This document shows positions 37,100-44,856 of a stretch of DNA of 64,000 bases, one piece after another. Under the pieces are notes generated by a model. It made no database searches, was not told the DNA's origin, and was given only the letters and a program-made list of their open reading frames with translations. Positions within the stretch are counted from its first letter, which is position 1, and the number at the start of each line of letters is the position of its first letter. The stretch is from the NCBI RefSeq assembly GCF_057098645.1, contig NZ_CM169472.1; one strand, given 5' to 3'. Both the position numbers and the translations under genes were made by a program.

Positions 37100-37564
37100 T
37101 TAACGCAAATGATGCACCACCTGATTGCTGCTGCCGCGCCAGATCAGGGAAGGGTCTTTTAAATCCTGCACAAATTTGCCGTCGACCAGCACGTTAATCA
37201 AATCAACAACCTGCATTTGCGCAGCGTTGAGTTCGTCGAGTTTATAGCCTGTCCACACCCAGATGTCTTTACCCGGACACTCGGCGCGGATGCGTTGTAC
37301 CAGTTTCAGAATATCCGGCACGTTTTGCGGATGCAGCGGGTCGCCGCCGGAGAGGGAAATACCCTGGCGTTTGATACGAGTGTCATTCAGATCGTTAATG
37401 ATCTGGTCTTCCATTGCTTTGGTAAATGGCTGACCGGAATTTACCCGCCAGGTGCTTTTGTTATAGCAACCGGGGCATTCATGAACACACCCGGAGACAA
37501 ACAGGGTGCAGCGAGTGCCGGGGCCGTTGACGATGTCGACAGGATAGTACTGATGATAATTCAT
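37100..37564 (-). CDS. nrdG: anaerobic ribonucleotide reductase activating protein (radical SAM)
   Basis: 154-aa ORF with CxxxCxxC (GCVHECPGC) radical-SAM motif. Confidence 0.95.
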   Translation of the reverse strand: MNYHQYYPVDIVNGPGTRCTLFVSGCVHECPGCYNKSTWRVNSGQPFTKAMEDQIINDLNDTRIKRQGISLSGGDPLHPQNVPDILKLVQRIRAECPGKDIWVWTGYKLDELNAAQMQVVDLINVLVDGKFVQDLKDPSLIWRGSSNQVVHHLR

Positions 37565-37753: not shown

Positions 37754-39892
37754 TCAACCTATCTGCCCATTTCCCAAATGTTTAACGCGGCGCTTAACTT
37801 CTTCCTGCTTACCGGCGTTAAACGGACGTGCATCCGGGCTACCTAAATATCCGCACACGCGGCGAGTTACCGACACACGGGAGGCGTCATGGTTACCACA
37901 TTTCGGGCAAGTGAAGCCTTTGCTGGTGCACTCGAACTCACCGGTAAAGCCACACTCGTAGCACTCATCAATCGGTGTATTGGTGCCGTAATACGGTACA
38001 TGCTGATAGCTGTAATCCCAGACATCTTCCAGCGCCTTCAGGTTGTGCTGAATGTTTGGATACTCGCCGTAGCAAATGAAACCACCGTTCGCCAGCGGCG
38101 GGTAAGGCGCTTCAAAGTCGATCTTGTCGTACGGGTTCACCTTCTTCTCCACATCGAGGTGGAAACTGTTGGTGTAGTAACCTTTATCGGTCACGCCCGG
38201 CACCACGCCAAACTCAGCAGTATCGAGACGGCAGAAGCGATCGCACAGGTTTTCACTCGGCGTGCTGTAGAGACTGAAACCATAACCCGTTTCTTCTTTC
38301 CACTGATCCACTGCCTGACGCAGACGTTCAACAATGGCGATACCTTTCGCGCGAAGCTGCTCGTTGTCGTAAACATGCTCGCCGCCGAACAGCGCGTTAA
38401 TGGTTTCGTGGATGCCGATGTAACCCAGCGAAATAGACGCACGACCGTTTTTGAAGATTTCAGAAACATCATCGTCAGCATTCAGACGCACGCCACAAGC
38501 ACCTTCCATATAGAGGATCGGGGCCACGCGCGCTTTCACGCCTTCGAGACGAGCGATACGGGTCATCAGCGCCTTACGTGCCAGCACCAGACGTTCATCC
38601 AGCAGCTTCCAGAAGGTGGCTTCATCGCCTTTTGCTTCCAGAGCAATACGCGGCAGGTTCAGGCTGATCACGCCGAGGTTGTTACGACCATCGTGGATCT
38701 GCTCGCCGTTTTCATTTTCCCACACGCCGAGGAAGCTGCGGCAGCCCATCGGAGTTTTAAACGAACCGGTGACTTTCACTACCTGATCGTAGTTCAGGAT
38801 ATCCGGATACATGCGCTTGCTTGCGCACTCCAGCGCCAGCTGTTTGATGTCGTAGTTCGGATCGCCTTTTTTATGGTTCAGGCCATCGCGAATCGCAAAC
38901 ACCAGTTTCGGGAACACCGCAGTTTTACGGTTTTTACCGAGGCCTGCGATACGGTTACGCAGGATAGATTCCTGAATCAGGCGCGACTCCCAGCTGGTGC
39001 CCAGACCAAAACCAAAGGTTACAAACGGCGTCTGACCGTTGGCGGTGTGCAGGGTGTTTACTTCGTACTCCAGCGACTGGAAGGCATCGTAGCACTCTTT
39101 AATGGTACGAGAGTTAGCGTAGCCTTCGGCGTCCGGGATGTTCCACTCTTCTGCGGTCTTGCGATGTTTGTTGTAGCTGGCGGTGACAAACGGTGCCAGC
39201 ACTTCATCGATACGGTTAATGGTGGTGCCGCCATAAATATGGCTGGCGACCTGAGCAATAATCTGCGCAGTTACCGCGGTTGCCGTAGAGATCGACTTCG
39301 GCGGTTCAATCTCGGCGTTCCCCATCTTAAAGCCCTGGGTCAGCATGCCTTTCAGGTCGATCAACATGCAGTTGAACATCGGGAAGAACGGCGAGTAATC
39401 GAGATCGTGATAGTGAATATCGCCACGCTCATGTGCCTGCACCACGTCACGCGGCAGCAGGTGCTGACGTGCATAGTGTTTAGCCACGATCCCGGCCAGC
39501 AGGTCGCGCTGGGTTGGAATCACCTTGCTGTCTTTGTTGGCGTTTTCGTTGAGTAACGAGGCGTTGGTCTGCTCGACCAGACCACGGATCTCCTGGTTCA
39601 GGCGACCGCGTTTTTCACGTTCAATGTCGCGATCGTGACGGTACTCGATGTAAGCACGAGCCAGTTGTTTGTATGGACCTGACATCAGCTGGTTTTCAAC
39701 AGCGGTCTGGATCTCATTGATATCCACCTGGTTGCGGCCCTGCATCTGCTCGCTGACAACCGCAGCAACAGTGGCGCAATAATCTGCATCATCGACTTCC
39801 GCTGCTTTAGCTGCACGCAGAATCGCTTCTTTGATGCGCTCTGATTTAAACGGCACTTTGCAGCCGTCTCGTTTCATCACATGCGGTGTCAT
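37754..39892 (-). CDS. nrdD: anaerobic ribonucleoside-triphosphate reductase (glycyl radical enzyme)
   Basis: 712-aa ORF; C-terminal zinc ribbon and glycyl-radical motif RVCGYLG. Confidence 0.97.
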   Translation of the reverse strand: MTPHVMKRDGCKVPFKSERIKEAILRAAKAAEVDDADYCATVAAVVSEQMQGRNQVDINEIQTAVENQLMSGPYKQLARAYIEYRHDRDIEREKRGRLNQEIRGLVEQTNASLLNENANKDSKVIPTQRDLLAGIVAKHYARQHLLPRDVVQAHERGDIHYHDLDYSPFFPMFNCMLIDLKGMLTQGFKMGNAEIEPPKSISTATAVTAQIIAQVASHIYGGTTINRIDEVLAPFVTASYNKHRKTAEEWNIPDAEGYANSRTIKECYDAFQSLEYEVNTLHTANGQTPFVTFGFGLGTSWESRLIQESILRNRIAGLGKNRKTAVFPKLVFAIRDGLNHKKGDPNYDIKQLALECASKRMYPDILNYDQVVKVTGSFKTPMGCRSFLGVWENENGEQIHDGRNNLGVISLNLPRIALEAKGDEATFWKLLDERLVLARKALMTRIARLEGVKARVAPILYMEGACGVRLNADDDVSEIFKNGRASISLGYIGIHETINALFGGEHVYDNEQLRAKGIAIVERLRQAVDQWKEETGYGFSLYSTPSENLCDRFCRLDTAEFGVVPGVTDKGYYTNSFHLDVEKKVNPYDKIDFEAPYPPLANGGFICYGEYPNIQHNLKALEDVWDYSYQHVPYYGTNTPIDECYECGFTGEFECTSKGFTCPKCGNHDASRVSVTRRVCGYLGSPDARPFNAGKQEEVKRRVKHLGNGQIG

Positions 39893-40096
39893 GATCGCTC
39901 CATATTTTTAAGAACAGGTTATCCACAGAAATTGGGAAAGGCGTTTTCCGGTTTTTTCGTTTCGTTTTCCGGTGCTTTCCGCAATCGCCATCCGCTTATC
40001 CACAACGCCGCACCTTTTTCGTGGGGAGCTGTAGTAGCAATTATAGTCGATTAATACAACATATTGGGTTGGGATGCATTTTAAAGTCTATATATA

Positions 40097-40141
40097 GTGC
40101 TTTGCATCAAGGATGTTTGAACTTTTTTTGATGTAGCTCAA
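40097..40141 (-). promoter_or_regulatory. tandem FNR-binding sites of the nrdDG promoter
   Basis: On the nrdD strand: TTGAGctacATCAA (40128..40141) and TTGATgcaaAGCAC (40097..40110), 31 bp apart, followed by tatata -10-like; nrdDG is FNR-activated. Confidence 0.5.
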
Positions 40142-40285
40142 AGTAAAAAGCAGAGCGTACGGATGACGGGCGCTACAGCGTTATGTAAATTTTTTAATGA
40201 ATTTGCTGGTTGAAAAATCAACAAAAACAACATGCTGACAGACAAAACCCCGGAATGACAGGCATTACCGGGGCTTAGCGAAGAT

Positions 40286-41941
40286 TTACTTCTGTAACCA
40301 CCAGACAGCCTCAAAAGGCCGTAGAGTCATGGCACAGGGTTGTGGTGAGGCTTCTTCGTAGTTATGCATCACAAGCTGCCAGTTGCCGCGCATTTGCCCT
40401 GGCTGCCAGGGTTGGATCTCACGGCTAAGGTTGGCAATGACCAGCAAGGTTTGCCCCTTCCATTCACGGCGATAGCACCACAATACAGGGCTGTTTGGCA
40501 GCAGATCCTGGTAATTGCCCCATGTCAGGATGGCTTCCTGCTTACGCAGTGCGATTAACTTTTGGTAGGTGTAAAACACCGAGGAATCATCGGCCAACGC
40601 GGCTTCTACGTTGATTTGTTGATAGTTATCGCCCAGGCCAATCCACGGTTCGCCAGCCGTAAACCCGGCATTATCGCCGTTGCTCCATTGCATGGGCGTG
40701 CGGCTGTTGTCACGGGATTTACTGGCGAGGATTGCCAATAACTCGTCGGCATCACGCCCATCGTTGCGCAGCTCGGCAAACATATTGAGGCTCTCTACGT
40801 CGCGATAGTCAGTAATGCGCGTGAAATGCGGGTTAGTCATGCCAATCTCTTCGCCCTGGTAGATATACGGCGTTCCCTGCATGCCATGCAGCACCATCGC
40901 CAGCATTTTTGCCGCAGGCACGCGGTATTCACCTTCATCACCAAAGCGAGAAACAATGCGCGGCTGATCGTGGTTACACCAGAACAAGGCATTCCATGCC
41001 ACGTTGTGCATTCCTTGTTGCCAGTGGCGGAACAATGTTTTCAACGCCACAAAGTCAGGTTTAGCCAGCGTCCATTTTTCACCACCGGGATAATCGACCT
41101 TCAGGTGATGAAAATTAAATGTCATCGATAATTCACTGCCTGTCAGTGCCGCGTATCGCTGGCAATGCTCAAGGCTGGTGGAGGACATTTCACCTACGGT
41201 CATTAACCCGCGTGGCGTAAACACATCGCGGTTCATCTCGTGCAAAAACTCGTGTGCTCGTGGCCCGTCGGTGTAGAAGCGACGCCCGTCGCCGTCCAGG
41301 TCTTCAGGGAAACGCGGGTCTTTGGAGATCAGATTCACCACATCCAGGCGCAACCCGTCGACCCCACGATCGGCCCAGAACTCACAGACTTTTTTCAGCT
41401 CTGCGCGTACCGCTGGATTCTCCCAGTTGAGATCCGCCTGTTCTGGTGCAAAGAGATGCAAATAGTACTGTTCGCTTTCCGCATGCCAGCGCCACGCACT
41501 ACCGCCAAATTTTGAACGCCAGTTGTTCGGTGGCGTTTCTGGTTCGCCATCGCGCCAGATATAAAACTGGCGGTAAGGGCTTTCTTTGTTCAGCGCCTCG
41601 CGAAACCAGGCATGTTGGGTAGAGGTATGGTTAAACACCATATCGAGAATGATACGAATCCCGCGCGATTTTGCCTGCGTCACCAGTTCGTCAAAATCGT
41701 CCAGCGTGCCGTAGGTGGGATCAATCGCCGTATAGTTCGCTACGTCGTAACCGTTATCGACCTGGGGAGAGACATAAAAGGGGGTTAGCCAGATGGCATC
41801 AACGCCCAGTTTATGCAGATAGTCCAGGCGTTGGATAACGCCACGTAAATCGCCGGTGCCGCTACCCGTGGTGTCCTGAAAACTCTTTGGATAAATCTGG
41901 TAGATAACGCCGTTTTGCCACCAGTGGGGAAGATTAGTCAT
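40286..41941 (-). CDS. treC: trehalose-6-phosphate hydrolase
   Basis: 551 aa from MTNLPHWWQNGVIYQIYPKSF (GH13 family). Confidence 0.95.
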   Translation of the reverse strand: MTNLPHWWQNGVIYQIYPKSFQDTTGSGTGDLRGVIQRLDYLHKLGVDAIWLTPFYVSPQVDNGYDVANYTAIDPTYGTLDDFDELVTQAKSRGIRIILDMVFNHTSTQHAWFREALNKESPYRQFYIWRDGEPETPPNNWRSKFGGSAWRWHAESEQYYLHLFAPEQADLNWENPAVRAELKKVCEFWADRGVDGLRLDVVNLISKDPRFPEDLDGDGRRFYTDGPRAHEFLHEMNRDVFTPRGLMTVGEMSSTSLEHCQRYAALTGSELSMTFNFHHLKVDYPGGEKWTLAKPDFVALKTLFRHWQQGMHNVAWNALFWCNHDQPRIVSRFGDEGEYRVPAAKMLAMVLHGMQGTPYIYQGEEIGMTNPHFTRITDYRDVESLNMFAELRNDGRDADELLAILASKSRDNSRTPMQWSNGDNAGFTAGEPWIGLGDNYQQINVEAALADDSSVFYTYQKLIALRKQEAILTWGNYQDLLPNSPVLWCYRREWKGQTLLVIANLSREIQPWQPGQMRGNWQLVMHNYEEASPQPCAMTLRPFEAVWWLQK

Positions 41942-41990: not shown

Positions 41991-43412
41991 TTAAACAATG
42001 TCCAGCGTGCCCAGGCGGTATTTCCGCTGATAGATAAACGAGGTGAGTACAATCGGGATGATGATGGCGATAGCCATTGCCAGCGCAAACACCTGCCAGT
42101 AGCTCGGTTGAATCGAGAGAATTCCCGGCAGGCCGCCTACGCCGATGCCATTCGCCATAACGCCGTTCAGGCCGCATAGCAATCCTGCCAGACCAGAACC
42201 AATCATCGCGCACAGCATCGGGAAGCGATATTTCAGGTTGATGCCGTACATTGCAGGCTCAGTGACCCCAAGCCAGGCGGAGATCGCCGCAGGCACGGAG
42301 ATCTCGCGTTCATTGTGTTTGCGGCTGGAAATGATAATGCCTATCACGGCGGAGCCCTGAGCGATATTCGACAGCGCAATCAGCGGCCACACTGGCGTAC
42401 CACCCATGCTTTGAATCATCTGCAAATCAATAGCAAGCGTGGTCTGGTGTACCCCGGTGATCACCAGCGGGGCGTACAGGAAGCCAAACAATGCCGCGCC
42501 AATCGGAGCAAAGCTGCCGGTCATCAGGTGACGTACCGCAAAGGCAACGCCATCGCCAATCATGCGACCAAACGGACCAATCAGCGCATGGGCGAGGAAC
42601 ACCGCGAGGATCAGCGAACAGACGGGCACCACCACCAGATAGAGGTAATCTGGCACGATGCGTTTAAGGCGAGTTTCAATAACGCCCAGCGCCAGCCCGG
42701 CTAACAGTGCCGGGATCACCTGCGCCTGATAGCCCACTTTGGCGATGCTGAACATGCCAAAGTCCCACACTTCCGGCAGCTGCTGCCCGAGCAGATAAGC
42801 GTTCATCAGCTGGGGGGAAACCAGTGTCACGCCAAGCACGATACCAAGGATCGGCGTGCCGCCCATTTTTTTCACCGCTGACCAGCAAATCCCGACCGGC
42901 AGGTAGAAGAAGATCGCTTCACCGATCAACCACAGAAAATCGTAGATCGTTTGCAGGGAAGGGTACATTTGCGCCAGCGTTTGACCGTTGCTCATGGGCA
43001 AATCGCCGATCACATTGCGAAAACCGAGGATCAAACCGCCGCTGATCAACGCGGGCAGCAACGGGAAGAAGATCTCCGCGAAATGAGAGATCAACTGCTC
43101 ATGCCATTTCATATTCTGCCGGGCGGCTTTTTTTACCTGCTCTTTATCAACCTGCGCCTGTCCGGTTGACGCTATCAGTGCTTGATAGTAATCACCCACG
43201 TTGGTGCCAATCACCACCTGAAATTGCCCGGCATTGGTGAAACAGCCTTTCACCATGGGGAGTTGCTCAATTTCTTTCGGTCTGGCATTGGCCGGTTGGT
43301 TGAGGACAAAGCGCAGGCGAGTAATACAGTGGCTCACCGTCGCAATATTGCCGCGCCCGCCGACCAGTTCAATCAACCGATCGATATCCGTTTGGTTTAT
43401 TTTGCTCATCAT
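41991..43412 (-). CDS. treB: PTS trehalose-specific EIIBC component
   Basis: 473-aa ORF, EIIB cysteine motif near N-terminus, polytopic EIIC. Confidence 0.95.
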   Translation of the reverse strand: MMSKINQTDIDRLIELVGGRGNIATVSHCITRLRFVLNQPANARPKEIEQLPMVKGCFTNAGQFQVVIGTNVGDYYQALIASTGQAQVDKEQVKKAARQNMKWHEQLISHFAEIFFPLLPALISGGLILGFRNVIGDLPMSNGQTLAQMYPSLQTIYDFLWLIGEAIFFYLPVGICWSAVKKMGGTPILGIVLGVTLVSPQLMNAYLLGQQLPEVWDFGMFSIAKVGYQAQVIPALLAGLALGVIETRLKRIVPDYLYLVVVPVCSLILAVFLAHALIGPFGRMIGDGVAFAVRHLMTGSFAPIGAALFGFLYAPLVITGVHQTTLAIDLQMIQSMGGTPVWPLIALSNIAQGSAVIGIIISSRKHNEREISVPAAISAWLGVTEPAMYGINLKYRFPMLCAMIGSGLAGLLCGLNGVMANGIGVGGLPGILSIQPSYWQVFALAMAIAIIIPIVLTSFIYQRKYRLGTLDIV

Positions 43413-44478: not shown

Positions 44479-44551
44479 CCTGTTGTCCTGTAACGTGTTG
44501 TTTAATTATTTGAGCCTAACTTTACCCGTGCATTCAGCAATGGGTAAAGTC

Positions 44552-44569
44552 TGGTTTATCGTTGGTTTA
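44552..44569 (+). promoter_or_regulatory. PhoP box of the mgtA promoter
   Basis: Direct repeat tGGTTTAtcgttGGTTTAg. Confidence 0.65.
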
Positions 44570-44662
44570 GTTGCCAGCAGGTATTATATCGCCATAGATG
44601 CTACGAATATTATTGGATTCTCCTTATTATTTGCGGCGCTTTTTTCACTTACCGGAGGTTAT

Positions 44663-44716
44663 ATGGAACCTGATCCCACGCCTCTCCCTCGACGGAGATT
44701 AAAACTTTTCCGGTAA
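44663..44716 (+). CDS. mgtL: mgtA leader peptide MgtL (proline-rich, 17 aa)
   Basis: [20 protein letters not shown] at 44663, within the mgtA 5' leader. Confidence 0.8.
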
Positions 44717-44856
44717 GCCCGTCTTTTCACGGCGTTACCGGATGCGTAAGGCCGTGACGTTTTAACGTCCCTGCTCAGCTTTATTACCTTCAGGTAAGGC
44801 TTCGCCACGCCTGAAGACATTTCTGTACTGTTTCAGACAGTGCGGAGGGACTCCTT

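Follow-up and report, generated by a model that had tools for sequence, protein, structure and literature searches.

The tandem FNR sites of the Escherichia coli nrdDG regulatory region and their conservation in the Enterobacteriaceae

We analysed a 64,000-nucleotide stretch of DNA from contig NZ_CM169472.1 (hereafter the window) and found that the DNA between treC and nrdD is almost certainly the regulatory region of E. coli nrdDG, in which transcription is activated by FNR via the two sites FNR-2 and FNR-1, repressed by NrdR and subject to an input from DnaA. The two FNR-type 14-mers that had been predicted at 40097-40141 are both present at exactly these coordinates, and they correspond to FNR-2 and FNR-1 as published for the nrdDG promoter of E. 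coli, i.e. they are already known. Experiments in the literature demonstrate the binding of FNR in vivo and in vitro, the hierarchy of its two sites, and the binding of NrdR and DnaA; the sequences analysed here establish the quality of the FNR sites, their exact spacing, and their conservation within E. coli and across the Enterobacteriaceae.

The window is E. coli DNA. A segment of 481 bp (39850-40330) has the same sequence in E. coli O145 str. RM9872 (100% identity), the treC-nrdD intergenic DNA was found in 5,425 of the 5,426 complete E. coli genomes, and over the 481-bp region as a whole most E. coli genomes are 95-99% identical to the window. The genes treB (41991-43412), treC (40286 to about 41941), nrdD (37754-39892), and nrdG (37100-37564) follow one another in this order on the minus strand, and all four have decisive NCBIfam matches. 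nrdD encodes the anaerobic (class III) ribonucleoside-triphosphate reductase with 712 aa (NF006732, E=0; RefSeq E. coli annotation) and nrdG the activating radical-SAM enzyme with 154 aa (NF008335, 2e-94). Downstream of the treC stop codon the minus strand can form a G+C-rich hairpin (40242-40279) with a folding energy of -18.5 kcal/mol (z -3.1), which was equalled by none of 200 shuffles. This hairpin is probably the treBC terminator, insulating nrdDG from upstream transcription, and nrdDG would therefore need a promoter of its own. A consensus terminator scan made no call at the hairpin because of its long loop, and an Rfam scan of the nrdD leader and the intergenic region gave no match above threshold.

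Both FNR sites are read on the minus strand. The distal site, FNR-2 (TTGAGCTACATCAA, 40141-40128), agrees with the consensus at 9 of 10 positions and is centred at -64.5 from the published start, the proximal site, FNR-1 (TTGATGCAAAGCAC, 40110-40097), agrees at 8 of 10 positions and is centred at -33.5. They are separated by a 17-nt spacer, corresponding to 31 bp from centre to centre, which is the spacing originally predicted, and the second site had rightly been described as having one good half-site, as the left half of FNR-1 is perfect and its right half has 3 of 5 consensus matches. Counting TTGAT-N4-ATCAA with at most one mismatch yielded 5 occurrences in the window vs 2.7 expected, a difference that is not significant and uninformative alone. 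We then scored the window with the kind of position weight matrix (PWM) that had been suggested as a check, using a symmetrised FNR matrix made from the 62 ChIP-seq-supported sites of Myers et al. 2013 with nrdD left out. With a score of 17.8 FNR-2 ranks first among the 63,987 positions of the window, the runner-up having a score of 13.0, and FNR-1 ranks eighth with a score of 10.7. Rank 5 (PWM 12.05) is held by TTGATAGTAATCAC, located within treB close to the 5' end of this gene (43182-43195). In dinucleotide-preserving shuffles a score of 17.8 was reached anywhere in 13 of 200 cases, and a site scoring at least 15 with a partner scoring at least 10.7 at a distance of 15-60 bp occurred in 1 of 200, the chance of finding such a partner near a given site being about 0.007. 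Conservation, described below, is stronger evidence for the FNR pair than these shuffle statistics, and once it is counted the pair is real and far beyond chance.

Published evidence for the FNR sites of nrdDG comes from mutagenesis, gel shifts, ChIP-seq, and SAXS. In the summary of Roca et al. 2008 and Boston & Atlung 2003 that is given in PMC10425943, site 2 (-64.5) is described as necessary and sufficient for activation, and site 1 (-33.5) as raising nrdDG expression only if site 2 is occupied. Gel shifts with the FNR variant D154A showed that site 2 is bound better than site 1, and anoxic SEC-SAXS experiments with a 54-bp oligonucleotide located dimers of wild-type [4Fe-4S] FNR at both sites, on the same face of the DNA (PMC10425943). 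The sole difference between this oligonucleotide and the window is at spacer base 40121. The mechanism by which nrdDG is activated is called 'a remaining mystery' in the same paper.

FNR ChIP-seq yielded a peak at nrdD over TTGATGTAGCTCAA, which is the distal 14-mer (PatSer 15.68, ln p -14.45; PMC3688515), and according to Table S12 of this study nrdD and nrdG are 2.8- to 3.7-fold higher under anaerobic conditions (Myers et al. 2013, PMC3688515), the direction of the ratio having been deduced from the marker genes cyo, sdh, hya, and nar. In glucose minimal medium no fnr-dependent change of nrdD was detected, and nrdD was grouped with operons that require other conditions or co-regulators, NrdR being mentioned (Myers et al. 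2013, PMC3688515); the FNR dependence of nrdDG would thus be conditional, or masked by NrdR. The original prediction of anaerobic FNR activation of the class III ribonucleotide reductase therefore matches the literature, both in the published positions of the sites and in the ChIP-seq peak. A second FNR ChIP-seq peak with a weak motif (ln p -7.47; Myers et al. 2013) was reported at treR/mgtA, which in the window corresponds to about 44479-44856; our PWM scan of the treR-mgtA gap gave no strong match.

CRP and FNR recognise related inverted repeats, and the complementary strand of most genera has a CRP-like GTGAT at the right half of the proximal site, raising the possibility that CRP or another protein of the CRP family, not FNR, binds both sites. 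However, FNR and CRP sites are distinguished by an established T/G difference, and in E. coli the core is of the FNR type, TTGA instead of GTGA, in three of the four half-sites. Moreover, ChIP-seq, gel shift, and SAXS experiments demonstrate that FNR binds directly at nrdDG. On the basis of the half-site cores and the direct binding data CRP was rejected as the binding protein, the probability of such an exchange being close to nil, and we assign both sites to FNR.

We infer the exact position of the transcription start by arithmetic from the published -33.5 and -64.5 positions, i.e. from a secondary citation with comparative support, which puts +1 (an A, minus strand) at about 40070, corresponding to about 4,462,840 in NC_000913.3, and results in an nrdD leader of 178 nt. 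The -10 hexamer is TAAAAT (40083-40078, minus strand), spanning -13 to -8 within the 15 nt that separate the two NrdR boxes. It has the TAnnnT form expected of a -10 element 6-8 nt upstream of the start, with A2 and T6 in place, and TTA(A/G)AATGC is present at a fixed distance from FNR-1 in 83 of 87 unique Enterobacteriaceae sequences; an A/T-rich, -10-like hexamer between the NrdR boxes is also found in distant Enterobacterales. The hexamer 17 bp upstream of the -10 is TGCAAA, which lies inside FNR-1, and there is no recognisable -35. A simple sigma-70 consensus scan returned no promoter on the nrdD strand, as expected for an activator-dependent promoter, and the call it made on the plus strand was discarded as an artefact inside the palindromic NrdR box.

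The original prediction had instead regarded TATATA (40096-40091), which directly adjoins FNR-1 on the nrdD strand, as the -10-like element. TATATA is A/T-rich and similar to TATAAT, and if it were the -10, transcription would start near 40084, which would place FNR-1 at about -20 and FNR-2 at about -50. With its centre so close to the start, near -20, a regulator normally occludes the polymerase rather than activating it, as is known from the CRP/FNR promoter classes. Neither TATATA nor TATAGA provides T6 and no frame has the A2/T6 signature; the position reads TACATA in many genera and never offers T6 among the 87 Enterobacteriaceae sequences. The published site positions, on the other hand, lead to a +1 that is 21 nt downstream of TATATA, and the conserved TA(A/G)AAT follows at a fixed distance, 8 nt farther downstream than TATATA. 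Finally, TATATA is the palindromic core of NrdR box 1, which has been shown experimentally to be bound. Hence, this part of the prediction has to be corrected, a -10 at TATATA being very improbable, and we retain TAAAAT at 40083-40078 as the -10, with the published start downstream of both FNR sites, just where an FNR-activated transcript had been expected to begin.

The segment from 40100 to 40054 has the architecture of an NrdR operator, namely two 16-bp palindromes with a CTATATATAG-like core that are separated by a 15-bp linker and lie over the core promoter. Box 1 (GCACTATATATAGACT, 40100-40085, minus strand) holds TATATA and shares the last 4 nt of FNR-1, and box 2 (ACCCAATATGTTGTAT, 40069-40054, minus strand) extends from +2 to +17. 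Both boxes are kept across genera, box 1 being conserved as CACTAYATATAG. E. coli NrdR-ATP/dATP binds to a 57-bp nrdDG oligonucleotide containing the two boxes with a KD of about 150-160 nM (PMC12176259), and 56 of the 57 bp of this oligonucleotide are identical in the window.

The nrdD leader contains two DnaA elements, both on the plus strand: a perfect DnaA box (TTATCCACA, 39996-40004; +67 to +75) and, just upstream of the Shine-Dalgarno sequence of nrdD, a double box (TTAAGAACA-gg-TTATCCACA, 39908-39927). The window has 2 perfect DnaA boxes, with 0.29 expected. Both leader elements are invariant across 21 genera, with unconserved leader sequence flanking them, and a DnaA ChIP-seq peak was reported at nrdD over an identical double box (PMC11317965). 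The leader also harbours CACCGGAAAACGAAACGAAAAAACCGGAAAACGCC (39940-39975, minus strand), a direct repeat of CCGGAAAACG present in E. coli and E. albertii; this repeat is not conserved in other genera.

For a comparison across species we retrieved 108 nrdD loci from GTDB species genomes by means of a degenerate nucleotide pattern for the N-terminus of NrdD, and scanned the 330 bp upstream of nrdD with the FNR PWM in the 100 loci that have at least 300 bp of upstream sequence. The two best matches are exactly 31 bp apart in 86 of these 100 loci, which are phylogenetically related and do not represent 86 independent events, as compared to 13 of 2,000 shuffled controls, and the pair is located at about -242 and -211 from the ATG. 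Footprinting with 21 genera revealed islands of identity at both FNR sites, the two NrdR boxes, TA(A/G)AAT, and the two DnaA boxes, the remaining nrdD leader showing no conservation. In the alignment of the 87 unique Enterobacteriaceae sequences part of the proximal-site conservation is forced by the anchoring pattern, and the independent PWM scan of the species loci agrees with this alignment on the conservation of the proximal site. Within E. coli, a stretch of 42 bp including FNR-2 is 100% identical in 5,397 of 5,425 genomes, as determined in short-word search mode. Each of the two FNR sites is thereby invariant in over 99% of the E. coli genomes, although the 481-bp region around them is 95-99% identical in most.

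The distal site is the more widely distributed of the two. Its TTG..CT...TCAA pattern is invariant across genera, and its score is highest in Escherichia (TTGAG, 17.8-18.3), most genera having TTGTT, TTGCG, or TTGTC (9-16). Tatumella, Pantoea, Ewingella, Rouxiella, Pragia, Limnobaculum, Leminorella, and Affinibrenneria carry one FNR site only, which is of the distal type, and a distal-type site is also present in representatives of the Erwiniaceae, Yersiniaceae, and Budviciaceae. In these distant Enterobacterales the single site is located 27-29 nt upstream of NrdR box 1, the distance being 28 nt in E. coli, and in Tatumella it is about 2 bp closer to the -10. As the distant Enterobacterales keep only the distal site, we conclude that this site is ancestral, which fits its necessary-and-sufficient role in activation. 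The proximal site is confined to the Enterobacteriaceae.

In 69 of the 87 unique Enterobacteriaceae sequences the proximal site is the stronger TTGATGCAAATCAC (PWM 15.4) with the right half ATCAC. Judged from this distribution, the AGCAC half in E. coli is a derived T-to-G change from ATCAC, which also occurs in the Klebsiella oxytoca group and a small number of others. Among the lineages with the G variant the site has decayed further, to TTAATGCAAAGCAC (TTAATG..) in E. whittamii and cryptic Escherichia clades, to TTGGTG.. in another lineage, and to TTAGTGAAAAGCAC (TTAGTG..) in Siccibacter turicensis. Distal and proximal PWM scores are anticorrelated (r = -0.44, without phylogenetic correction). 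In the loci L012, L080, L093, L096, and L109 (E. whittamii, and genomes that bear the label E. coli or Escherichia sp., with about 83% identity) the proximal TTAATGCAAAGCAC has a PWM score of 6.3 and the distal TTGAGCTAAATCAA a score of 18.3, and in effect these genomes seem to have lost the proximal FNR site.

The derived base in E. coli and the progressive decay in other G-variant lineages could mean that of the two sites E. coli has kept the distal one alone in function and that the proximal TTGATGCAAAGCAC is a decaying relic with little or no contribution in vivo. Such a reading would also accommodate the sufficiency of site 2 alone, as reported in the summary in PMC10425943, and the single high-scoring site at nrdD in Myers et al. 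(PMC3688515). SAXS, however, detects wild-type FNR on both sites (PMC10425943), and 5,419 of the 5,426 E. coli genomes share the 30 bp around FNR-1 without a single difference, even though NrdR box 1, which lies within these 30 bp, could explain this constraint alone. We therefore consider a mere relic unlikely and treat FNR-1 as a weaker but contributing FNR site.

Conservation does not end at the published start but extends past it and collapses right after CTAnnaT, the second part of a conserved TCGnCTAnnaT element (40040-40050, minus strand; +21 to +31 of the published start). In E. coli CTAnnaT corresponds to TATAAT (40045-40040; +26 to +31), and the conserved positions are T1, A2, and T6, the same as in a -10 hexamer. 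From this pattern one may construct a second, downstream nrdDG promoter, relative to which FNR-1 would be centred at about -71.5, a canonical class I position. If this promoter existed, NrdR box 2 would cover its -35 region, and both the stimulation from the '-33.5' site and the genus-to-genus shift of strength between the FNR sites, seen as the anticorrelation of their scores, would be explained. An 87-nt 'nrdDG promoter' fragment (40151-40065), which lacks the TATAAT element, gave weak expression and was judged too weak in a reporter study; a second promoter would fit this result but is not demonstrated by it, and we hold its existence to be decidedly unlikely. A third NrdR box at the TATAAT element was rejected, as it would be about 18 bp from box 2 instead of 31 and has 7 of 12 core matches. 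Two further elements are conserved on the minus strand, CAAACAT (40113-40119; -49 to -43) in the 17-nt spacer between the FNR sites and TTTTAC (40142-40147) immediately upstream of FNR-2; we found no factor assigned to either.

The closest known system is the E. coli K-12 nrdDp itself, which is the same locus, with FNR-1 at -33.5 and FNR-2 at -64.5 (Boston & Atlung 2003 and Roca et al. 2008, as summarised in PMC10425943). The FNR 14-mers, the NrdR boxes, the -10, and the DnaA boxes in the printed K-12 sequences (PMC10425943, PMC12176259, PMC10208419, PMC11317965) are identical to those of the window. Two positions differ, both outside the motifs, as the window has T instead of C at 40121, in the inter-site spacer, and A instead of G at 40075, between the -10 and +1. 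Promoters of the yfiD-type tandem, class II (-41.5), and class I (-61.5) kinds resemble nrdDG in having TTGAT-N4-ATCAA repeats, in depending on the activator, and in their weak -35, and the tandem-site FNR promoters also share with it the location of two dimers on one face of the helix. In nrdDG, in contrast, the essential site is the distal one, near a class I position, and the proximal site at -33.5 is about 8 bp closer to the start than in class II promoters. At yfiD, with its tandem FNR sites at -40.5 and -93.5, it is the proximal site that activates, and the distal one down-regulates. Canonical FNR positions are -41.5 (+/- 4) for class II and -61.5 or -71.5 for class I, and with the published start FNR-2 is 3 bp off class I and FNR-1 8 bp off class II, so that neither would be canonical. 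The promoters of nrdAB and nrdHIEF, like that of nrdDG, have two 16-bp NrdR palindromes that are 15 bp apart and straddle the -10 and the start. Among these NrdR-repressed promoters nrdDG alone combines the NrdR boxes with FNR sites, 4 bp of box 1 being shared with FNR-1.

Combining the published binding data with the layout of the sites we propose the following mechanism. In anoxia dimeric [4Fe-4S] FNR occupies the high-affinity FNR-2 site at about -64.5 and, from this roughly class I position, probably recruits RNA polymerase to the promoter, whose -10 is good but which has essentially no -35. A second FNR dimer binds to the weaker FNR-1 site at -33.5, three helical turns (31 bp) away and on the same face, and boosts the output only as long as FNR-2 is occupied. 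NrdR, bracketing the -10 and the start, would repress transcription, and given the 4-bp overlap of NrdR box 1 and FNR-1 it probably also competes with the proximal FNR dimer, as was proposed earlier for Salmonella (PMC2892513). The DnaA boxes in the 178-nt leader serve as an additional input.

To synthesise DNA in the absence of oxygen, cells have to change from the aerobic (class Ia/Ib) to the anaerobic (class III) ribonucleotide reductase. Signals for oxygen, via FNR, for the dNTP/ATP status, via NrdR, and for the status of replication, via DnaA, converge on the nrdDG promoter, and all of this has been published before. To this our comparative results make a modest addition, namely an ancestral distal FNR site, an Enterobacteriaceae-specific proximal site that is weakened in Escherichia, and a fixed 31-bp spacing between the two.
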